Part shown: piece after piece, positions 3,334 through 57,408 of the stretch | Layout: every line of letters starts with the position of its first letter | Numbering within the stretch: position 1 is the stretch's first letter | Source: an uncultured Candidatus Saccharibacteria bacterium | GTDB taxonomy: Bacteria; Patescibacteriota; Minisyncoccia; Phycocordibacterales; JAACPR01 | Length of the DNA stretch: 64,000 nt | Reading direction: 5' to 3' | Assembly: GCA_964538855.1 (NCBI GenBank) | Contig: CAZIEY010000002.1 | Coordinates: 65,709-129,708, forward strand | Translations under genes and position numbers: made by a program | The notes under the pieces: model-generated | Database searches by the model: none | Told to the model about the DNA's origin: nothing | What the model saw: only the letters and a program-made list of their open reading frames with translations

Positions 3334-6018
3334 ATGGTGCCACCATTCAAAAATTTTACATCGAAAGCAAGAGAGGCGATTCGACAAGCGCATGAATTGG
3401 CGCTTGAACGTGGACAAAATCACGTCAATCCACTCCATTTGCTCACCGCACTTCTCACACAAGACGAGAGTTTGGTTATTTCCATTCTCGATAAAATGTC
3501 CAAAGATAGCACTCTGATTTCAGAACGCCTCTTTGATTTGATTGAGGCGCCAGAAGGTTCACCTACATTGTCACCATCATTTCAAATGTATCTATCACCG
3601 GAATTGGCGCAGGTGATCGAGCATTCTAGTCGTATTGCAACCGCGATGAAGGATGAATTCGTTTCAGTCGAACACCTTTTACTTGCAATGTTTGATGCGG
3701 GTGGAGAGGTCACTGAAATTCTTAATCAATTTAAAATTGATAAAGAAGAAGTACTCCGCATCATGAAAGAATTGAAAAATTCCAAGGGTTCAGAAACACA
3801 CGCCACAAAATCTACAAAATCGATTCAGAAATATACACAAAGCCTGACTAAAAAAGCACTCGAGAAAAAGATTGATCCTGTGATAGGTCGTGATTCAGAG
3901 ACAAATCGCATTATTCAAATTTTGTCTCGTCGCACAAAAAATAATCCAATTTTAATTGGAGAAGCGGGTGTTGGTAAAACCGCGATTGTCGAGGGGCTTG
4001 CGAATCGAATCACATCGGGCGATGTACCAGAATCTTTGAAAGACAAAGATGTCGTTTCGCTTGATCTCGGTTCATTGGTGGCCGGAACAAAATACCGTGG
4101 TGAATTCGAGGATCGCCTCAAGAAAATCATGAAGGAAGTCAAAGAGGCCGACGGTAAAATTATTTTGTTTGTGGACGAAATTCACATGCTTGCAGGTGCG
4201 GGTGCAGCCGAAGGGTCACTTGATGCTTCGAATATGCTAAAGCCGGCTTTGGCACGTGGAGAATTTAAATGCATTGGCGCGACGACTCTCAAAGAATATC
4301 AAAAATATATTGAAAAAGACGCGGCGCTGACTCGACGTTTTCAGCCTGTTTTGGTGAGCGAACCTTCCGTCGAAGACGCAATTGCGATTATGCGTGGACT
4401 CAAAGAAAAATATGAACTTTACCACGGTGTACGAATTACAGATGACGCGATTGTGGCATCAGTTGAATTGTCGAGTCGTTACATCACCGACCGATTTTTG
4501 CCAGACAAAGCAGTTGATTTAATTGATGAAGCTGCATCAAGTTTGAAAATTGCGCTTGATAATATGCCACCGGAATTGGAGGCGGCTCGTCGTAAAATTT
4601 TGCGTCTTGAAATTGAACATGAAGCGTTGAAAAACGAGGAGAAAAAATCTGTCAAAGCCCAAAACCGTTTTCGTGATGTCAAAAAAGAAATTGCTGACCT
4701 CAAAGAGGCTAATAGCGAATTGGATTTGAAATGGAAAAACGAAAAGGAAACTATTGCGATCATCAAAGGCCTCAAACAACAGCTAGAGGTGGCGCGCATC
4801 GATGCGGATGCGGCGGTTGCTTCGGCTGATTTGACGACAGCTGCCGAAATTAAGTACGGTAATATTCCAAATCTCGAAAAAGAATTGGCGGCTGCTGACA
4901 AGCGCCTCAAAAAATTGCAGAGCTCTCGACGTATTTTAAAAGAAGAAATTTTGGAATCGGATATTGCCGAAGTAGTTGAACGATGGACTGGTATCCCAAC
5001 AAACCGCATTTTGGAAGGGGAAATCGATAAATTGTCACGCATCGAGACAGAACTCAAAAAGAAAATCATCGGTCAAGATGTTGCAGTCCGAAAAATCGCT
5101 GATACGATTCGTCGCTCACGCGCTGGGATTTCTGATCCAAATCGTCCGATCGGTTCGTTTATTTTCCTCGGGCCAACAGGTGTGGGTAAAACTGAATTAA
5201 CAAAAACGCTCGCGGAATTTTTATTCAATGACGCCAAGGCACTTATCCGTGTCGACATGTCTGAATTTATGGAGAAACATTCAGTTTCAAAATTAATCGG
5301 TGCTCCGCCAGGATATGTTGGTCACGAAGAATCGGGCAGTTTAACTGAAACGGTACGTCATCGACCGTACTCGGTAATTTTGTTTGATGAAATTGAAAAA
5401 GCCCACCCAGAGGTTTTCAATATTCTTCTTCAAGTTCTCGACAATGGACGCCTCACGGATGGAAAGGGTCGCGTGGTCAACTTCAAAAACACTGTTATTA
5501 TTTTGACTTCAAACATCGGTGCTGAACACATCGACAAGATGGAAAAAATCGGTTTCATCGACAATACGAGCGAAGCGAAACAATACGAGGACGCCAAGAA
5601 AAAAATCGAAAAATCTCTCAAGGATCATTTCCGTCCAGAATTTTTGAATCGTCTCGATGATATTGTGATTTTTGATGTCTTGAATCAGGACGTGATCAAA
5701 CAAATTGTTGATATTCAAATGACCGAAGTTGCAAAGCGTCTTGCTGAAAAAGAAATTACACTCAAATTTACACCGGCTGTCGTTGCGTATCTCGGAGTGA
5801 ATGGTTATGACGCACATTACGGAGCGCGTCCTATCAAGCGCATTATTCAAAACAAGATTTTGAATCAAATTGCACAGCTCATTATTAATCGAAAAATCTC
5901 AGCTGGTGACACGATTTCTCTCAATGTGAAAAACGATCAATTTGTCTTTGACGTAAAATCTGGCAAAATCGCGTCATCTTTCAAAGACTCGGACATCAGC
6001 GAAGTTTTATCTGTCTAA
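3334..6018 (+). CDS. clpB: ATP-dependent chaperone ClpB
   Basis: Clp N-domain repeats, two Walker A boxes ([15 protein letters not shown] and [19 protein letters not shown]), and a long coiled-coil M-domain between the AAA modules; 894 aa. Confidence 0.9.
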
Positions 6019-6137
6019 AAACAAAATAACTCGAAATTTTAAAAGTCTGGTTGATCATCAACACAAAACGCACATCCACTTCTGAACGTGCGTGATGCGA
6101 CCCGAGGACTTTAAAATTTCGAGTTATTTTGTTTTTT
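6019..6137. repeat. Palindromic intergenic element, copy 1 (long form)
   Basis: Outer inverted repeat aaaacaaaataactcgaaatttt / aaaatttcgagttattttgtttt encloses a conserved core, ttaaaagtctggttga...gcgacccgaggactttaaaa, with an inner hairpin (acgcac...gtgcgt). Starts 1 nt after the clpB stop and abuts the tRNA-Tyr 3' end. Confidence 0.75.
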
Positions 6138-23987: not shown

Positions 23988-23989
23988 CT

Positions 23990-24117
23990 AAGAAAAACAA
24001 AGTAACTAAATTTTAAAGTCCTCGGGTCGCATCACGCACGTTCAGAAATGAATGTGCGTTTTGTGTTGATGCTCAACCAGACATTTAAAATTTAGTTACT
24101 TTGTTTTTCTTGACAAG
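23990..24117. repeat. Palindromic intergenic element, copy 3 (long form, inverted orientation)
   Basis: aaaaacaaagtaactaaattttaaagtcctcgggtcgc...ctcaaccagacatttaaaatttagttactttgttttt. Near-exact reverse complement of the copy-1 core, including the 45-bp inner module. The outer arms, taactaaa / tttagtta, are self-complementary but differ from copy 1. Confidence 0.75.
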
Positions 24118-50660: not shown

Positions 50661-50826
50661 CTAATAGAAAGTATTGTTACTGTATACCAATCTAGGTAAT
50701 GGCGACGTAGAGGGTAAATTGCCTATAAAAATTGTAGGTAACTCATCCTCTACGAGGATTACTATCTCATGTCGGGATAGTGAAACTTGGCACGCCACAG
50801 TGGCACGCCAAAAAAGGAGATTAGCA

Positions 50827-52160
50827 TGAAATCGTTATCGCAATTACGTGATAAGGCGCAACTTGCACTTGCAAAACGCGAACTGGTTCAAGTGGCCGAG
50901 AATTTCTCGCCCACAGCAGCTTACGAGCGAGCAATCGCATTATACTATAGCGAAGAGATGGCGCGAAGCTGTCGATTCCTAGCGATCATCTACCGTGACT
51001 ATGGCAAGGATGCTGTTGAGAATTTGATCAGGGATAAGCGCGAGGCAGACCTTGACCGATTTTTCAAGGAACGTGTAGTTCCAGGCATCTCTCTTCTGGA
51101 AACGGTTGGCGGTGGTAAATTGATGATTGTCGATCCTCAAGATTGTGATTTGCCGCTATTGGATTATCTCGAGAGATCGAAGGTTCACTCGTTGGACGTT
51201 GGGATGACGCTCGGAGAATACAGAATTGCTTTCAAGTGGCAGATTAAAAAGGACAGTAAGCACAACGATACGGAATGTCGTCTCGTTGTGATTGGTCCCG
51301 ATGGCAAGAACTTGGAATACACGGACTCCGACAACAAGGTTTATACCGAACAGTCCTTTACTATGATGTGTGGAAAGAGGCATCATCCAGACTCTGTGAA
51401 TCTTCGAAGCGAATTGTATCATGCCATCGAGAGACTCCTGTACGGAAACGTAGAGTGGCCTCACCAATCTGTAATGCTTCTGATTATTGCTGACTTGGAG
51501 AAGCGTGGGTGTAAGATGGCTCCCCGCCTCCAGCAGTACTGCAAAGATCGTGGGTTGGAACTGTGGAAGTTGAATGAGTATGGTCTCGTTGGTCAACTCA
51601 AACAGTTCGCCATGGATCTTCGTGGAAAAGCAGTTGCTGATGGAGTGTGTCCGCAAGGACTCGCATTTCTTGATCTGCAGATCGACCGAGCTATCAGTGA
51701 AGCAACTCTCTATAATGAAGTGTTCGATATGGGCACTTTACTTGTGAGTAAGCTTCATAATGTACATTTTTGGGTCGATTACCACGTAATTCCTGGCCCG
51801 AGGGCTGAAAAGACTTACAATTTTTTGCTCCACACGGATTCAGGAATGGGTGATTGGGTTACATTGCTGGAGAAGAAGGGTTACGGTGGTAGCGTCGTGA
51901 TTGCATTCTTTAATATCCACAGTGGCATGCAAGTTGCTCGGACCGGACAATGCGATGCCCTCCTTCTCCAACAGCACGGAGGTTGTCAAAAAGATGACAT
52001 CCTTGCTGAAGCTCAGAGTTCAATGGAGATAGCACAAGCAGCTCGTGGTAACACCAAAGTCTCGAAACTTCCGAGGTACAAATGGGACTCACACCATAGC
52101 GGTAGTCATCAGACGTGCGGTGGTTTCGATAAATTTCTTGACGAGTACTTTCCTAAATAA
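50827..52160 (+). CDS. Hypothetical protein (444 aa); GC-elevated, no recognisable domain
   Basis: Start set at MKSLSQ behind a perfect SD aaggag. Cys/His-rich C-terminal part. Confidence 0.55.
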
Positions 52161-52282: not shown

Positions 52283-53251
52283 ATGATTCGCAAACGCATC
52301 GCCATCGTCCGTGGGGGACCTTCGTCCGAATATGATGTATCGCTCAAATCGGGCAAGCATGTTTTGCATGAATTGTCTGACGATTTTCATGTCGTTGATG
52401 TCGTGATTGACAAAGCCGGCGTCTGGCATATTTCTGGCCTGCCACGCGACCCTCACGAAGCACTCGCGCACGTCGATGTGGTTTTCAATGCGATGCACGG
52501 CGAATACGGCGAGGACGGCAAATTCCAACAGCTCATGGAAAATTTGGGCAAGCCTTACACAGGATCTGGTGCGCTTGGTGCCGCGATGTCGATGAATAAA
52601 GAAAAGGCGAAAGAGCTTTTCAAAAAAGCCGGCCTCAAAACGCCCGTGCATAAAACGCTGTCTCGTCCAGAGAGCGAGGGCGGTCTCGAATTTCAAGCGA
52701 CGCTCGTCTTTCGCAATTTCACGATGCCCGTCATTGTAAAGCCGATTAACAAAGGCTCATCGATTGGCGTTTCGAAAGCTCACACATTCGAAGAATTAAA
52801 AACCGCGATGTCGACCGCGTATTCGTTCAGCGAAAAAATTATTGTCGAAGAATTCATCGACGGCAAAGAGGCAACAGTCGGCGTTCTTGAAAATTTCCGA
52901 GGCGAAAATGTCTATGCATTTATGCCCGTCGAAATTGAAGTTCCAAAACAGAAAAAACTTTTTGATTATGAAGCAAAAACGTCGGATGAAACTCGTAAAA
53001 AAAGCCCCGGCAATTTCACTCGCGAGGAAAGCAAATTGCTCGAAGACGCGGCTCGCACCGCCCACGAAGTGCTCGGCTTGCGCCACTACTCTCGCTCTGA
53101 TTTTATCGTGCACCCACGCCGTGGCGTCTACATTTTAGAAACGAACGCGTTGCCCGATATTTCGCGCGACTCGACATTGCATCATTCGTTGCAGGCGGTG
53201 GGGATGTCGTACAAGGATTTCTTGATTCATGTGATTAATTTACTAAATTAA
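52283..53251 (+). CDS. ddl: D-alanine--D-alanine ligase (paralog 1, compact)
   Basis: MIRKRIAIVRGGPSSEYDVSLKSG and an ATP-grasp fold; 322 aa. Confidence 0.85.
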   Translation: MIRKRIAIVRGGPSSEYDVSLKSGKHVLHELSDDFHVVDVVIDKAGVWHISGLPRDPHEALAHVDVVFNAMHGEYGEDGKFQQLMENLGKPYTGSGALGAAMSMNKEKAKELFKKAGLKTPVHKTLSRPESEGGLEFQATLVFRNFTMPVIVKPINKGSSIGVSKAHTFEELKTAMSTAYSFSEKIIVEEFIDGKEATVGVLENFRGENVYAFMPVEIEVPKQKKLFDYEAKTSDETRKKSPGNFTREESKLLEDAARTAHEVLGLRHYSRSDFIVHPRRGVYILETNALPDISRDSTLHHSLQAVGMSYKDFLIHVINLLN

Positions 53252-53253
53252 AA

Positions 53254-53276
53254 CCCACCAACTTGTCATTGGTGGG
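53254..53276. terminator. Hairpin cccaccaa-cttgtcatt-ggtggg; the T-run lies on the minus-strand side
   Basis: Perfect 8-bp stem. On the minus strand it is followed by tttt, terminating leftward transcription of the tiny ORF; it may also act for ddl. Confidence 0.45.
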
Positions 53277-53316
53277 CACAGCGGACCTGCTCCACTGTGT
53301 AAGAAGAAGTGCCGGC

Positions 53317-53388
53317 TTATTGGCCGGTCAATATCGCTTCTTCTTCGTCCTGAGATCCTTCGTAATCTTCATCCCATTGGTGCTTCAT
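53317..53388 (-). CDS. Candidate 23-aa acidic micro-ORF with a strong SD
   Basis: MKHQWDEDYEGSQDEEEAILTGQ. SD gaaaggag sits 10 nt upstream. Confidence 0.2.
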   Translation of the reverse strand: MKHQWDEDYEGSQDEEEAILTGQ

Positions 53389-53494
53389 GATAATCTGACT
53401 CCTTTCTAGGGAATCACCACAACAATGCAGTGAATTCACCTATATATTATAATAAGTATATAACTCAATTTGTCAATACCTATTGGTAATGCGG

Positions 53495-53653
53495 ATTTAT
53501 TGTTATGAAAATCATTGTAAACAACATCGCCACCGAATACACGGATGAGGGCTCTGGCCCAGTCATTTTGTGTTTACATGGATGGAAGGACAGTTTGCGA
53601 ACATTTGATGCGCTCGAGCCTGAATTAGTGAAAAAAAATGTAGAAAACTCCGC
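53495..53653 (+). pseudogene. Truncated duplicate of the 5' end of the alpha/beta hydrolase gene
   Basis: 53495..53610 is 116/116 identical to 54135..54250, both starting exactly at the ATG. It then diverges and hits a stop after 13 codons (52 aa). Confidence 0.7.
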
Positions 53654-53666
53654 TCGTATGTAGGCG
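53636..53666 (+). terminator. Rho-independent terminator after the truncated duplicate
   Basis: aactccgctcgtatgtaggcggagtt followed by tttga. Confidence 0.7.
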
Positions 53667-53702
53667 GAGTTTTTGAGGGCTGAAACCTCGCGTTGATGTT
53701 TG

Positions 53703-53996
53703 TCAGACCGGATCCCATGGTGCCGATTTGTTGTTCGGACGGTTCTTTGCTGGGCTGATCACCATGATGAGTCCAACAATGAGGGCGTATGCCGCTAGAC
53801 AATTTGAAAGGCCATGAGCGACAACGTGCAGAAAGGTCTCATCTCCATGCACGAGCCCATCCTCGATCCGTATTTGCTCTGCGTGCACGGTCTCGACGAT
53901 GGTTGTTGCCTCGGCGCGGGTTTTTTGGTTGATGACCAAAAACCAGATTGTATAGTACATCAAGATAACTATAATCAATTTCTCTGAGGTATGCAT
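53703..53996 (-). CDS. Small two-TM membrane protein carried on the 524-bp insert
   Basis: 97 aa with hydrophobic helices at both ends. SD gaggag 5 nt before the ATG. Confidence 0.6.
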   Translation of the reverse strand: MHTSEKLIIVILMYYTIWFLVINQKTRAEATTIVETVHAEQIRIEDGLVHGDETFLHVVAHGLSNCLAAYALIVGLIMVISPAKNRPNNKSAPWDPV

Positions 53997-54048
53997 GACT
54001 TCTCCTCACATGTGCCTGCTTAGAAAATCCAGCTATCAGCACATTATT

Positions 54049-54077
54049 AGTATAGCATACATGTAGTATAAAGTCAA
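54049..54077 (-). promoter_or_regulatory. Minus-strand promoter TTGACT-17-TATACT for the small membrane-protein gene
   Basis: On the minus strand: ttgactttatactacatgtatgctatact. Confidence 0.55.
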
Positions 54078-54134
54078 GTATATAAAAACTCATATTTCAC
54101 AATTCAAAAATGCTACAATATTTCCACCACTCAC

Positions 54135-54884
54135 ATGAAAATCATTGTAAACAACATCGCCACCGAATACACGGATGAGGGCTCTGGCCCAGTCATTTTG
54201 TGTTTACATGGATGGAAGGACAGTTTGCGAACATTTGATGCGCTCGAGCCGGCATTGCTCCAAAAAGGCCGAGTCATCGCCGTTGATTTGCCGGGCTTTG
54301 GCGAAACGGGAAATCCACCCGAAGCGTGGCAGGTTGGTGATTATGTGCAATTCGTCGCGGACTTTTTGAAAAAATTGAATGTCGAGGCGGACGTGCTCAT
54401 TGGCCACTCGTTCGGCGGGCGTATCATCATCAAGGGGCTTGGTGAAGGGAAATTGCGAGCTCAGAAAATAGTTTTGATCGCTTCCGCTGGAATCGTTCCT
54501 GAGAAAACGTGGCGAAGCCGTCTCGTCGCGATTGTCTCGCGTGCCGCGGCCGTTTTCTTCCGCATCCCGCCATTTCATTTTCTTCGCAATAAAATGCGCG
54601 CGATTTTCTATAAAAAAATCGGTAGCGATTATTTGAATGCCGGCGCTCTCCAGGAAACTTTCCTAAAAATTATTGCCGAAGATCTCTCTGACTACGCGCG
54701 ACGCATCACTATTCCGACCTTGCTCATCTGGGGCAAGCACGACAAGGCGACTCCTCTCGCGACCGCTGAAAAATTGCACGCGCTCATCGCTGGGTCTCGT
54801 CTCGAAGTTTTTCCCGACGCTGCTCATTTTGTGCATCATGAAAAAGCGGTGGAAGTCGGAGGGTTGATCAGTCGATTTTTGTAG
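54135..54884 (+). CDS. Alpha/beta-fold hydrolase
   Basis: LHGWKDS, nucleophile elbow GHSFGG, and a C-terminal His in the catalytic triad region. Extended -10 tgctacaat upstream. Confidence 0.8.
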   Translation: MKIIVNNIATEYTDEGSGPVILCLHGWKDSLRTFDALEPALLQKGRVIAVDLPGFGETGNPPEAWQVGDYVQFVADFLKKLNVEADVLIGHSFGGRIIIKGLGEGKLRAQKIVLIASAGIVPEKTWRSRLVAIVSRAAAVFFRIPPFHFLRNKMRAIFYKKIGSDYLNAGALQETFLKIIAEDLSDYARRITIPTLLIWGKHDKATPLATAEKLHALIAGSRLEVFPDAAHFVHHEKAVEVGGLISRFL

Positions 54885-55000
54885 TTATTGACATCGCCGT
54901 TTTAAAAGGGTAATAATATATTTAGAAGGAGGTAAAATCTGGCGTGTGCTAGGTTACTTCCGCTCTTTTTGTTGGAACTTAACTGGAGGATAGACGAATC

Positions 55001-55339
55001 ATGTATGCAAGAACCGTGTTGCAAATAACCACTTGGCATGATGACTTGGAATTCGTTATTCGAGAGCACAAAGCCAAAGGAAAATTCGGTTATTGGATTT
55101 CGCGGGGACCAGGAGGCCATATGGGACTTTTGTCGACCACTAATGCCGATTACCCTGTGACTGAAGCCCATGCATTCGAAGAGATTTCGAAGTTGCTTGA
55201 AAAAGCGCTCGAAGTCGCGGCATTGTTCGATGAAGGTGGTGGCCTTATGACCCGTGCTACTGTTGATCGAATTCTCTCTGATCTCAGGATAGGGAGGGTC
55301 GCGTCGACTTACAAATACAAACAACCGGCGATGACCTGA
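55001..55339 (+). CDS. Hypothetical protein (112 aa); GC-rich
   Basis: SD ggagga upstream; no recognisable domain. Confidence 0.45.
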   Translation: MYARTVLQITTWHDDLEFVIREHKAKGKFGYWISRGPGGHMGLLSTTNADYPVTEAHAFEEISKLLEKALEVAALFDEGGGLMTRATVDRILSDLRIGRVASTYKYKQPAMT

Positions 55340-55443
55340 GAAACCGACGCCTTCTGAAGACCTCGAACACCAGTTGTTCGGGGTCTTGCTTCATTATGTA
55401 ACTACTATTTAACCTCACCACATTTTAGTGATAAACTATTGGT

Positions 55444-56922
55444 ATGTTGAAAAGCTTTTTTAAAAAATTCCTCTCGCAATTTCACTATCGATTTCCGCGT
55501 AGTATTATTTATATGTTGCAAGTGAGCGAGTATAACATTCGCGACTATGTGCAGTGGTTGGATCGTGTGCATCATTTTGGTCGAGTTGAAGTGCGCAAAA
55601 CTCTTGTGCCGACCGCAAAATCGAAATTGATGCGAATCAAATTATGGGCAATTATCGTGGCGCTTTTTGCGGGGTCGATTGCTGGGTTCGTGTTCGCCGA
55701 TACTTTTTTTGAGAACCTGATCGCAGTCGTCGTGTTTTTATTCACGCCGATTTTGTCCGCGTATGTGATGGTTATTCCGGTCTTTTTCTTTGCGCTTCTT
55801 GTGCAGAAACCGCATGAGTGGCATATGATTCGTCAGGCTACCAAAAAATTGGCTGGGCATAAAGGCTTCAAAATCGCAATCGCTGGCAGTTATGGCAAGA
55901 CTTCGATGCGCAACATGCTCGCAACTGTTTTGCGCGAGGCAAAAAATGTGGCGACGCAAGAAAAAAACTTTAACACGTTGGCCGGTATTAGCCGCTTCAT
56001 TACAAATCTGAAAGGTGATGAGGAAGTGATCATTTTCGAGCTCGGCGAATACATGCCTGGTGATATTGCAAAAATGTGCACGATTATTCGGCCGGACCTC
56101 GGTATTGTGACGGGGATTAACGAGGCGCACCTACATAATTTCAAGAATGTAAACGCAACGGCGCACGAAATTTTTACGCTTGCTGATTTTGTCCACGACA
56201 AGCCGCTTTATGTGAACGGAGAAAATACTCGCGCGCGGCAATTTGTGGCGCACATGAACTCAAAGAATTTGCACGAATATTCTCGAGAGGGAATCGCGGT
56301 CGCACATGTGGCTGGTGCGAATTTCACCGTGTCCGAAGCTGAAACGGATTTGGATGGGGTGCGTTTTACTATCACTTGTGACGATACGCCGATTCGAGCA
56401 GAATCAGGATTGCTCGGGCTTCATCAAATTGGGCCGTTGTCTGCGGCGATTAAAATTGCACATGATATGGGTTTGACTCGTGAGCAGATCGAAGCTGGCA
56501 TCACTAAAACGCGCGCGTTTGAACATCGTCTCGAACCTAAAATAAATTCAGTTGGAGTAATTACGCTCGATGACAGTTACAATGGCAATCCTGATGGAGT
56601 GGTTGCGGTGATTGATTTTTTGGCGAGTCTCCGCAACACACGCCGATTTTATGTAACACCTGGTCTTGTCGAAATGGGGAGTGCGAGCGAAGCGGTCCAC
56701 CGCATGATTGGTCAGAAATTGGCTCGGTCCGGAATTGAAAACGTGGTGCTCATTCAAAATTCTGCGACACCCGATATCGAATTCGGACTTCTCGAAAATA
56801 AATATCCGGGCAAAATTATTACATTCCCAAACGCATTCGCGGCATTTGCGGCACTCGAACATTTGACGACGACAGGTGATGTGGTGCTTTTGCAAAATGA
56901 TTGGCCGGACCAGTATGCGTAA
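55444..56922 (+). CDS. murF: MurF-like Mur ligase with an unusual N-terminal multi-TM domain
   Basis: IAGSYGKTSMRNM (compare MurF GSSGKTSVKEM), NTLAGI, and LDDSYNGNPDGV (compare MurF DDSYNAN). The first ~120 aa are hydrophobic helices instead of the usual MurF N-domain. Confidence 0.7.
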   Translation: MLKSFFKKFLSQFHYRFPRSIIYMLQVSEYNIRDYVQWLDRVHHFGRVEVRKTLVPTAKSKLMRIKLWAIIVALFAGSIAGFVFADTFFENLIAVVVFLFTPILSAYVMVIPVFFFALLVQKPHEWHMIRQATKKLAGHKGFKIAIAGSYGKTSMRNMLATVLREAKNVATQEKNFNTLAGISRFITNLKGDEEVIIFELGEYMPGDIAKMCTIIRPDLGIVTGINEAHLHNFKNVNATAHEIFTLADFVHDKPLYVNGENTRARQFVAHMNSKNLHEYSREGIAVAHVAGANFTVSEAETDLDGVRFTITCDDTPIRAESGLLGLHQIGPLSAAIKIAHDMGLTREQIEAGITKTRAFEHRLEPKINSVGVITLDDSYNGNPDGVVAVIDFLASLRNTRRFYVTPGLVEMGSASEAVHRMIGQKLARSGIENVVLIQNSATPDIEFGLLENKYPGKIITFPNAFAAFAALEHLTTTGDVVLLQNDWPDQYA

Positions 56923-56979: not shown

Positions 56980-57408
56980 TCACCCTTCGGCTACCACAAC
57001 CGCGGGATTGGATTTGTCGGCCGTCGCCCAGTCGCTGGTCGTCGAGTGCCCAGTCTTCTCGACCTCTGCGACAATTCTGTCGATCTGGGCATAGGTCATG
57101 ATACTGCCCCTGTCTTTGTGAGCTCTCGGGATGTACCTGACCACTTTTCTTAGGAGTTTGCGAATAATCTTCGCCCCCTCCTTCGAATCCTGGATTTTCA
57201 ACGACTTTCTCGTCATGAAGATCTTTTCGGGTTTTGGCCCCGGATCGAGTCGCATGAGAATCCGAAGTTCGTTATCTCCTCCGTTATGTCGTTTTCCGAC
57301 GATAAACTCCAGGCGGAGAGGATTTTCCCAGATCAACCTCCTGCGAGTTTTGGGTATCTTCACATTGGGTATCTTAACAGTACGTTTTTTCACAAGACGC
57401 TTCTTCAC
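56980..57408 (-). CDS. Hypothetical highly basic protein (142 aa)
   Basis: Lys/Arg-rich ORF (MKKRLVKKRTVKIPNVKIPKTRRR...). Function unknown. Confidence 0.4.
   Translation of the reverse strand: MKKRLVKKRTVKIPNVKIPKTRRRLIWENPLRLEFIVGKRHNGGDNELRILMRLDPGPKPEKIFMTRKSLKIQDSKEGAKIIRKLLRKVVRYIPRAHKDRGSIMTYAQIDRIVAEVEKTGHSTTSDWATADKSNPAVVVAEG

Follow-up and report, generated by a model that had tools for sequence, protein, structure and literature searches.

A duplicated hydrolase gene start in a Patescibacterium as the probable scar left when cassettes were exchanged imprecisely at a strain-variable locus

In a stretch of 64,000 nucleotides from an uncultured Candidatus Saccharibacteria bacterium (hereafter the window), the beginning of an alpha/beta-hydrolase gene is present twice, once as a truncated stub and once at the head of an intact gene. 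This arrangement raises the question of how the duplicate arose and which of the sequences around the two copies is the newcomer. The initial annotation regarded the segment between the copies, which contains a small membrane-protein gene, as a recent insert and was reminded of integrating elements that carry a replacement gene end. Here, the locus was examined together with nine related loci (L007, L008, L009, L010, L012, L013, L026, L027 and L029), of which L007 belongs to assembly GCA_020049755.1 and L008 to GCA_013558375.1.

Results

The two copies constitute an exact direct repeat in which positions 53505-53620 equal 54135-54250 at 116 of 116 positions. Their start-to-start period is 630 nt, with 514 nt (53621-54134) between them. 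The perfect identity given in the initial annotation is therefore real, although the interval it assigned to the first copy (53495-53610) is not identical to 54135-54250, and what it described as a 524-bp insert and a 640-bp segment measure 514 and 630 nt, respectively. It correctly placed the beginning of both copies exactly at the hydrolase start codon: the ATG of the hydrolase ORF is the first base of each copy, and the repeat has no leftward extension, the base preceding the ATG being different in the two. The right end falls at an arbitrary position within a codon. Over the next 16 nt, 10 positions match, which lengthens the similarity to 132 nt at 95%. This pair is the sole exact direct repeat of at least 25 nt in the whole 64-kb window, so a chance origin is excluded. 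No inverted repeats were found at the ends of 53621-54134.

Copy 2 (54135-54250, plus strand) heads the intact hydrolase gene (54135-54884), the product of which matched Pfam Abhydrolase_1 with an E-value of 2.9e-27. A predicted extended -10 element (TGCTACAAT; 54111-54119, plus strand) lies 15 nt before the ATG, as located by upstream-region alignments and by BLAST of 54103-54134 against L010, L029, L026 and L009. Irrespective of the upstream gene, eight relatives keep the promoter region beside copy 2 with minor changes, and the extended -10 itself is conserved to a similar degree in those relatives that have an insertion at this site.

Copy 1 (53505-53620, plus strand) corresponds to hydrolase nucleotides 1-116 and opens a 52-aa stub ORF (53505-53663, plus strand) composed of 38 hydrolase codons, a shared proline, 13 unrelated codons (ELVKKNVENSARM) and a stop codon. 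The intact gene continues beyond nucleotide 116 as ...GAGCCGGCATTGC. The stop codon of the stub sits within a 12-bp A-tract/T-tract hairpin at 53643-53674 (termed T2), in agreement with the earlier description of a first copy that diverges into 13 junk codons followed by a terminator. The GHSFG nucleophile motif (hydrolase residue 90) is absent from the stub, and a promoter scan gave no convincing plus-strand site upstream of copy 1. With no catalytic residues, no promoter-like site in front and T2 directly in its path, the stub looks inert, and it would be silent and non-functional in the cell. Behind the repeat follows a junction zone of ambiguous origin (53621-53636; TGAATTAGTGAAAAAA), which matches hydrolase nucleotides 117-132 at 10 of 16 positions and the corresponding L007 sequence at about the same number by manual count; clear homology to L007 begins at 53637. 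These 16 nt may be a diverged hydrolase continuation (PELVKK against PALLQK) or, since they match the L007 cassette about equally, part of that cassette.

The stretch between the copies carries what is referred to here as the 'B' cassette. Its cargo is a 97-aa orphan gene on the minus strand (53703-53996), identified from the ORF list and predicted by hydropathy to encode a protein with two transmembrane helices (hydrophobic spans at about residues 4-25 and 58-85). The AlphaFold model contains two long helices at low confidence (pLDDT 67). The gene has the Shine-Dalgarno sequence GAGGAG and a predicted promoter (TTGACT-17-TATACT; 54077-54049, minus strand) with a TG before the -10 that makes it an extended one; the initial annotation of this gene, its promoter and its ribosome binding site was thus upheld. 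To the left of the gene lies T2 (AAAACTCCGC...GCGGAGTTTT), a predicted bidirectional terminator hairpin with dG values of -16.6 on the plus and -13.6 on the minus strand. In the homologue search, the 97-aa protein retrieved itself, one 85%-identical protein on L007 and a weak repetitive match with an E-value of 4e-4, leaving the L007 protein as its only solid relative. No match was obtained in Pfam, PHROGs or NCBIfam for the 97-aa, 112-aa, 142-aa and 457-aa proteins, and the same collections revealed no toxin or immunity signature in the cargo genes.

The part specific to the window is instead 53252-53636 (385 nt), which contains a series of three hairpins, a very short acidic ORF preceded by a promoter of its own, and the stub. 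The three consecutive hairpins (T1; 53253-53327) follow the ddl stop codon and form the left end of the 'A' cassette. The minus strand of 53245-53335 folds with a dG of -39.4, terminator-like sites are found inside T1 at 53277-53253 and 53327-53312, and no T1 homologue was present among the relatives. The acidic ORF (MKHQWDEDYEGSQDEEEAILTGQ; 53317-53388, minus strand) has an AGGAG-type ribosome binding site and would encode 23 aa from an ATG or 40 aa from a GTG at 53439. It is faced by a predicted near-consensus promoter (TTGACA-16-TATTAT, 11/12; 53449-53476, minus strand) obtained from the promoter scan. The ORF belongs to no family in Pfam or PHROGs and has no homologue and no exact protein record; exact-protein look-ups of the hydrolase, the 97-aa protein, the 52-aa stub ORF and the 40-aa form of the acidic ORF returned no record. 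Likewise, 53252-53636 has no DNA or protein relative in any collection searched, and in scans of genomes, metagenomes and viruses no contig carried the A segment or the stub junction, and none had a locus of the A type. Rfam (gathering thresholds, and E<=1 over 53200-55100) reported only three tRNAs, all elsewhere. The region from the ddl stop into copy 1 (53252-53504) was also considered as a diverged copy of 53997-54134, but the marginal, AT-rich local alignment of 43 columns was reached by 2 of 500 shuffles and was therefore not relied on.

The comparison with related strains determined the polarity of the change. The conserved left flank is ddl, encoding D-Ala-D-Ala ligase (52283-53251, plus strand; Pfam Dala_Dala_lig_C/N), which we propose as the homologous anchor of the event. 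In L007, the ddl stop codon is followed by 40 nt, a conserved T2, the 97-aa gene, its promoter and the full hydrolase gene, with no stub and no repeat. The 97-aa gene is regarded as resident because L007 carries the same module without a stub, and in the window 53252-53636 takes the place of the 40 nt that separate the ddl stop from the start of homology in L007. The first 15 nt past the ddl stop (AAAACACCCCGGGTG) are common to L007 and L009 despite their different cargo genes, indicating that a direct ddl-to-cassette junction is ancestral. Since, in addition, a crossover between the 116-nt repeats could not yield the L007 arrangement, the A cassette and the stub are the derived part. This reverses the polarity assumed initially, in which the 514-nt segment with the 97-aa gene was the insert. 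The L008 contig begins inside the 97-aa gene and so covers no stub region, and the stub arrangement is not conserved in any relative examined.

The ddl-hydrolase gap measures only 10 nt in L027 and is occupied on the minus strand by genes for proteins of 156 aa in L026, 505-508 aa with a PG_binding_1 domain in L029 and L010, 106 aa in L012, 149 aa in L013 and 97 aa in L007, as well as by a small protein with a lipoprotein-like signal sequence in L009. Across the relatives, homology picks up again on one side at the ddl stop and on the other at the promoter module or the start codon. By this comparison, the gap is a hotspot of apparent gene turnover. The repeat starts at the ATG because conserved coding sequence meets the strain-variable upstream cassette at that point, and not because of a recombinase site.

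The flanking genes are, as judged from alignments, mosaics of recombined tracts, and homologous recombination between diverged alleles appears to be frequent. The 3' half of ddl (52763-53242) has 90-96% identity to L029 compared with 80-93% to L009, L010 and L026, which marks the gene as mosaic. This half and the ddl terminus, L029-like and unlike L007, L009 and L010, would be consistent with an imported block. The first about 300 nt of the hydrolase gene are L029/L012-like and the last 400 nt L007/L009/L010-like. Downstream of it, a second cargo swap between conserved flanks distinguishes the window and L008 from L012. The window and L008 are identical across 53838-55496 save for one patch, differ by 26 mismatches in 55497-56103 and are then identical again. 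The patch comprises five substitutions at 54146-54152 (53516-53522 in copy 1) that give IVNN in both copies and IIQN in L008. L012 and distant relatives likewise carry the IVNN allele, and the fact that it is found in both copies but not in L008 is a hint of gene conversion. Identity over the first 116 nt of the hydrolase gene is 87-101 of 116 positions in seven relatives and 111 of 116 in L008, a 99% strain; these values support the recent recombination event initially suggested, recent being relative to strain divergence.

Pfam, PHROG and NCBIfam searches of the segment and of the neighbouring ORFs that were scanned, which lie within about 10 kb, detected no integrase or transposase. The surrounding 10 kb or so is core chromosome (UvrA/B/C, murF, ddl, RpoB/C and DnaE). 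An integron-like or transposon origin was discarded, as there were no recombinase, attC-like sites or terminal inverted repeats, and 116 nt compares with the 2-14 bp of a transposon target duplication. Flanking direct repeats, as a site-specific element would leave, are present; at 116 nt, they are unusually long for att repeats, the recombinase is absent, and no relative has an empty A-type site with a single repeat. Together with the conservation of the promoter beside copy 2 in eight relatives, this speaks against the integrating element envisaged initially. Simple tandem duplication does not describe the locus either, since only 116 (to 132) nt are shared and not a whole unit.

Discussion

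Considering the sequence comparisons as a whole, we propose, with a probability of roughly 55%, that the duplication is the scar of an imprecise cassette exchange at a strain-variable hotspot in a core cell-wall gene cluster (ddl, hydrolase, murF, ddl2) of this Kaiserbacteria-like Patescibacterium, produced by homology-facilitated illegitimate recombination (HFIR). In HFIR, an insertion is coupled with a deletion and one side is anchored by homology (PMC3240628). An insertion coupled with a deletion is what the locus displays, with 385 nt in place of the 40 nt of L007. The resident locus would have been of the B type as in L007, with ddl, about 40 nt, T2, the 97-aa gene on the minus strand, a divergent promoter region and the hydrolase gene. 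The donor would have been a closely related strain with an A arrangement of ddl, T1, the acidic mini-ORF on the minus strand, its promoter and the hydrolase gene. Donor DNA may have recombined homologously in ddl; in place of an in-register crossover in the hydrolase gene, its other end would have undergone illegitimate joining, with hydrolase nucleotide 116-132 fused to the resident cassette at a site shortly before T2, about 24-40 nt inside that cassette. Such an event would insert about 370-385 nt, delete about 24-40 nt and leave the A cassette and the 116-nt stub in front of the intact B cassette and gene. The copy itself is most likely a harmless recombination scar.

We infer both the donor and the single-step course from the comparisons. 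The donor is hypothetical because no A-type strain (acidic ORF, promoter and full hydrolase gene) was found in any collection. The only relative covering the joint, L007, is 12-16% diverged, and for this reason the joint is not resolvable to the nucleotide and microhomology is not demonstrable. The 116/116 identity implies either a donor nearly identical to the recipient here or later homogenisation of the copies; the shared IVNN patch hints at the latter type of process, gene conversion, for which the one-step model alone does not account. Conservation of the com genes for DNA uptake extends across CPR phyla, and Saccharibacteria have been shown to be naturally transformable (PMC10633639); by analogy with these CPR-wide genes, the present organism may be competent as well.

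The layout is formally repeat-insert-repeat with perfect repeats, and it could also have arisen if a 630-nt unit (T2, the 97-aa gene, its promoter and hydrolase nucleotides 1-116) had entered the hydrolase start of an ancestor with the order ddl, acidic ORF, promoter and hydrolase, either through a Campbell-type single crossover of a small circle or as an integrating element with a replacement gene end. If RecA mediated a crossover at the repeats, exactly this unit would be lost and the gene would again be intact, and the 97-aa gene appears self-contained, with its own predicted strong promoter, ribosome binding site and terminator. We nevertheless consider this course unlikely: L007 has the module directly after ddl without stub or repeat, the promoter region by copy 2 is ancestral to the clade and common to strains with unrelated cargo, neither a nearby recombinase nor an A-type empty site was found, and a circle of 630 nt would have to survive cell-to-cell transfer. 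A two-step history is similarly doubtful. In it, microhomology would first have mediated tandem duplication, in a B-type genome, of the 630-nt unit that runs from T2 to hydrolase nucleotide 116; ordinary allelic replacement, with crossovers in ddl and in the first stub, would then have exchanged the first unit's cassette for an A-type cassette. It invokes two events where one suffices, has a right homology arm of only 116 nt and calls for an extra explanation of the loss of about 24-40 nt after ddl, and no strain with two full units was seen; to its credit, tandem duplication would create exactly the junction of hydrolase nucleotide 116 with T2, exchange of cassettes between conserved flanks has been documented here, and the copies would be identical without a near-identical donor.

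We consider it improbable that the arrangement exists in no cell and results from assembly, the A and B alleles of co-existing strains having been concatenated by a scaffolder, a gap-closer or manual curation. The source looks like a metagenome-derived contig of 253 kb, the population is demonstrably multi-strain and mosaic, and exact-protein and pattern look-ups yielded no second assembly of the stub or its junction, so that neither the A segment nor the 53620/53621 join has independent support. The repeat length also equals k-1 for a k-mer size of 117, which some assemblers use, and this coincidence is a lead only. However, the two sides of 53620/53621 share no long k-mer, so a de Bruijn or overlap assembler would need reads containing the join; overlap-type errors give adjacent duplicates at contig ends and not copies 514 nt apart; and the sequence has no N runs. 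Moreover, the sequence after the stub is not the hydrolase continuation and thus cannot be the gene of strain A. The right-hand junction of the 97-aa gene, promoter and hydrolase gene is supported by L007 and by L008 (100% over 53838-54134, with the one five-position patch at 54146-54152). A function of the stub is highly improbable, whether as a decoy leader or short peptide or by way of read-through from the 97-aa promoter across T2 to give an antisense RNA regulating hydrolase mRNA in trans. The antisense complementarity to the first 116 nt would be perfect and cover the start codon, and the predicted strong promoter of the 97-aa gene points towards the stub; yet the stable T2 hairpin stands between the two, the arrangement is conserved in no relative, Rfam gave no RNA family match, and perfect identity is expected of any young duplicate.

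The finding is ordinary, and the stub, a young and probably neutral structural variant, is of little consequence in itself. Annotation of the 52-aa ORF should flag a gene fragment and not a gene. The locus illustrates imprecise recombination cleanly, and in a natural setting, for an uncultured bacterium with a reduced genome. Furthermore, the comparative series, from a compact 10-nt junction to eight different gap occupants, shows turnover of orphan small genes inside a conserved cell-wall cluster, each of which brings a strong promoter along or comes to lie under one. Should the pattern hold generally, it would offer a handle on how CPR genomes acquire and discard small lineage-specific proteins, both membrane and secreted ones, without recourse to classical mobile elements. 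More speculatively, and as a long shot, the ddl-hydrolase-murF cluster might host an integrase-free cassette system in these Patescibacteria. Small orphan genes acquired by DNA uptake would be swapped in this system, with recombination anchored in conserved promoter/leader modules and in the initial codons of core genes. The 116-nt stub would then be an intermediate trapped in the process, and stubs of this kind would be a systematic by-product, recurring throughout CPR genomes.

The locus resembles several known systems without coinciding with any of them. With the HFIR products of S. pneumoniae, Acinetobacter baylyi and P. stutzeri, it shares continuous homology on one side (ddl), an illegitimate joint on the other, and a small insertion (about 385 nt) with a small deletion (about 24-40 nt) that need no recombinase. 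Here, however, the event is deduced from comparative data rather than observed, and the illegitimate end would lie inside a gene that the recipient also has, giving a gene-start duplicate and not purely foreign DNA. In the Rhs/CDI/T6SS effector-immunity arrays, successive cassette replacement likewise shifts the old module and leaves fragments of a conserved gene as repeats, and HFIR has been invoked for the displaced gene fragments in T6SS/Rhs arrays (PMC5361080). Such arrays conserve a 5' core and displace 3' ends together with immunity genes, whereas the piece repeated here is the 5' start of a housekeeping-type hydrolase gene and the cargo consists of tiny orphan genes. Phages and islands integrated into tRNA or protein genes with a replacement gene end also have target-gene repeats flanking a segment while the gene stays intact; in contrast, the present locus combines the absence of an integrase with a 514-nt 'element', a 116-nt repeat and cargo that a relative carries without the repeat. 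Flexible genomic islets are similar in that one core gene pair brackets different cargo in each strain and the flanks are mosaic. The present case differs from them in its very small scale of single orphan ORFs of 23-508 aa, in its position inside the peptidoglycan-precursor cluster of a reduced CPR genome, and in having conserved promoter modules as one of its flanks.

A 116-nt direct repeat opens a hydrolase gene and an upstream stub

Sequence comparison within the window identified an exact direct repeat of 116 nt (53505-53620 and 54135-54250). The initial annotation had recognized the 116-nt exact duplication, but its first interval, 53495-53610, lies 10 nt too far to the left and does not match the second copy exactly; its spacings of 640 and 524 give way to a period of 630 nt with 514 nt between the copies. 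As it had stated and the ORF positions confirmed, each copy starts at the ATG of an alpha/beta-hydrolase reading frame (54135-54884, plus strand, 249 aa; Abhydrolase_1, E 2.9e-27). The repeat has no leftward extension, the base preceding the ATG differing between copies, and only a weak 16-nt rightward one (10/16 matching), which brings it to 132 nt at 95%. Chance origin was excluded because this pair is the sole exact direct repeat of at least 25 nt in the 64-kb window. The ATG edge was rejected as a recognition site, since the repeat starts where conserved coding sequence meets a strain-variable upstream cassette.

The first copy opens a 52-aa ORF whose hydrolase content ends after codon 38/39. 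ORF and hairpin-fold analyses bore out the described divergence into 13 unrelated codons and then a terminator, with the stop codon falling within T2, a bidirectional 12-bp hairpin with an A-tract on one side and a T-tract on the other (53643-53674; dG -16.6 on the plus strand, -13.6 on the minus strand). This stub lacks the GHSFG nucleophile (residue 90) and all sequence downstream, leads directly into T2, and had no promoter-like site upstream in a promoter scan. We regard it as a probably inert gene fragment; the intact hydrolase gene retains its clade-conserved promoter. The 97-aa gene between the copies (53703-53996, minus strand) was likewise found as described: its product has two hydrophobic spans, and it is preceded by a GAGGAG ribosome-binding site and a TTGACT-17-TATACT promoter of the TG-extended type. 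Homologue and family searches left its product an orphan without assigned role.

The window is core chromosome, encoding ClpB, ThrRS, DnaE, SMC, RNase R, RpoB/C, DnaG, UvrB/A/C, a D-Ala-D-Ala ligase (ddl), the hydrolase, a murF-type ligase and a second ddl (ddl2). No integrase or transposase was found among the ORFs scanned within ~10 kb. The nearest named relatives of the hydrolase belong to Candidatus Kaiserbacteria MAGs, and hydrolase-murF adjacency is kept even in relatives at 40-52% identity. Elsewhere in the window, two inversely oriented ~120-nt elements with ~27-nt terminal inverted repeats (6017-6136, flanked by the clpB stop and a tRNA gene, and 23989-24110) each form one long hairpin (dG -48 and -60 kcal/mol). 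Neither matched Rfam; they are either MITE-like or unusually large terminators.

The ddl-hydrolase gap varies among related strains

Nine informative related loci, retrieved via the hydrolase, were compared with the window. The most compact, L027 (71% hydrolase aa identity), reads ddl, 10 nt, hydrolase, 34 nt, murF. In seven others the gap between ddl and hydrolase is occupied by a minus-strand gene: a 156-aa gene in L026 (75%), a PG_binding_1 protein of 505-508 aa in L029 (77%) and L010 (87%), a small protein with a lipoprotein-like signal sequence in L009 (88%), a 106-aa gene in L012 (78%), a 149-aa gene in L013 (71%), and the 97-aa gene, 85% identical to that of the window, in L007 (86%). 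Inter-strain homology ends at the ddl stop codon and restarts in a ~30-130-nt promoter module before the hydrolase ATG (extended -10 TGCTACAAT in the window, with minor variants in relatives), which argues that the gap is a gene-turnover hotspot where cargo is swapped between conserved flanks.

A second strain-variable islet lies between hydrolase and murF (54885-55443). Here the window and its 99% strain L008 have two stretches in common with L012, a promoter/leader element and the 109 nt immediately preceding murF (99% identity). The ORFs enclosed by these stretches are unrelated: a 112-aa orphan (55001-55339) found only in the window and L008, versus a 130-aa ORF in L012. This gap is nearly absent in L027, L029 and L007. 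The element comprises a TTGACA-18-AATAAT promoter and a ~45-nt conserved leader with a 21-nt invariant core, AAAATCTGGCGTGTGCTAGGT, and precedes unrelated ORFs in strain-dependent position and orientation (window 54888-54960; L026 5594-5661, minus strand; L012 1845-1919; L008 1051-1123). The reading frame across the leader is not conserved, and 54888-54960 matched nothing in Rfam; a portable promoter/leader module and a regulatory RNA that has escaped recognition are both possible readings. Two further orphans, one of 457 aa that separates uvrC from ddl (50787-52160) and one of 142 aa, on the minus strand, that separates murF from ddl2 (56980-57408), had no Pfam, PHROGs or NCBIfam matches. The corresponding junctions are compact in L027, and these orphans suggest several turnover hotspots in the cluster.

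The derived piece is probably the left cassette with the stub

In the window, 385 nt (53252-53636) occupy the place of the 40 nt that follow the ddl stop in L007. This A segment contains three hairpins, the 116-nt stub, 16 ambiguous nt, and an ORF for a strongly acidic 23-aa peptide, MKHQWDEDYEGSQDEEEAILTGQ (53317-53388, minus strand), with a strong ribosome-binding site, a promoter matching consensus at 11/12 and a hairpin of its own that spans the stop codon. The segment had no DNA relative in the fetched loci or the rest of the window; the peptide had no relative anywhere searched, leaving it an orphan without assigned role.

L007 runs ddl stop, 40 nt, T2, 97-aa gene, promoter module and hydrolase, without a stub. 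Its first 15 nt past the ddl stop are shared with L009 despite differing cargo, so a direct ddl-to-cassette junction is the older state. Recombination between the two repeats cannot yield the L007 arrangement, because it would remove the 97-aa module. The L007 arrangement, the shared 15 nt and the uniqueness of the A segment together indicate that the 97-aa module is resident and that the left cassette plus stub is derived. This reverses the polarity initially proposed, in which a 524-bp segment with the 97-aa gene was the insert, and the idea of an integrating element that brings a replacement end for the gene was not supported.

The proposal of a recent recombination was supported. The two copies show zero differences in 116 nt, placing their divergence below ~2.6% at 95% (simple binomial), while identity to the window over this gene start is 111/116 in L008 and 87-101/116 in other relatives. 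The event, or the last homogenisation of the copies, postdates the split from all relatives, possibly excepting L008, whose contig does not extend as far as the stub.

Homology-facilitated illegitimate recombination as a candidate origin

L008, the nearest strain, is identical to the window over 53838-55496 bar five substitutions within 7 nt (54146-54152), carries 26 differences across 55497-56103, and matches fully once more beyond that tract. The ddl 3' half and first ~300 nt of the window hydrolase are L029/L012-like, and its last 400 nt L007/L009/L010-like. These tracts argue for frequent homologous recombination between diverged alleles at the locus. The mosaic ancestry is sharp (52763-54434 versus 54485-54884; also 55497-56103, a 600-nt murF tract 4% diverged from the otherwise identical L008). 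The 5-nt patch at 54146-54152 (IVNN replacing IIQN) occurs in both window copies and in L012 and distant relatives, compatible with duplication after its acquisition or gene conversion between copies.

We infer that the structure arose by homology-facilitated illegitimate recombination (HFIR). DNA from an A-type sister strain (ddl, A cassette, hydrolase) would have entered a B-type cell, one with T2, the 97-aa gene and its promoter, and paired in ddl. Its other end would have been joined illegitimately, with hydrolase nt 116-132 meeting a site 24-40 nt inside the resident cassette and no in-register crossover within the hydrolase. An A-type donor was not found in the collections searched. Alternatively, the 630-nt unit may have been duplicated in tandem and the cassette in the first of the two units then exchanged by allelic replacement, which gives a product identical to that of the one-step joining. 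The structure may also be a chimera in which scaffolding or curation joined two alleles that co-exist; exact-protein and pattern look-ups found neither the 53620/53621 junction nor the A segment in a second assembly. However, an assembler cannot make that join without reads containing it, because no long k-mer is common to its two sides and the post-stub sequence is not hydrolase.

The duplication looks real and is an ordinary scar left by recombination at a small cassette hotspot. HFIR yields insertions coupled with deletions, as in this structure (PMC3240628), and is the mechanism proposed to explain gene fragments displaced within T6SS/Rhs arrays (PMC5361080). The com genes for DNA uptake are a conserved feature of CPR phyla, and Saccharibacteria have been shown to undergo natural transformation (PMC10633639). 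The scar would be a fresh instance of an already known kind of event.
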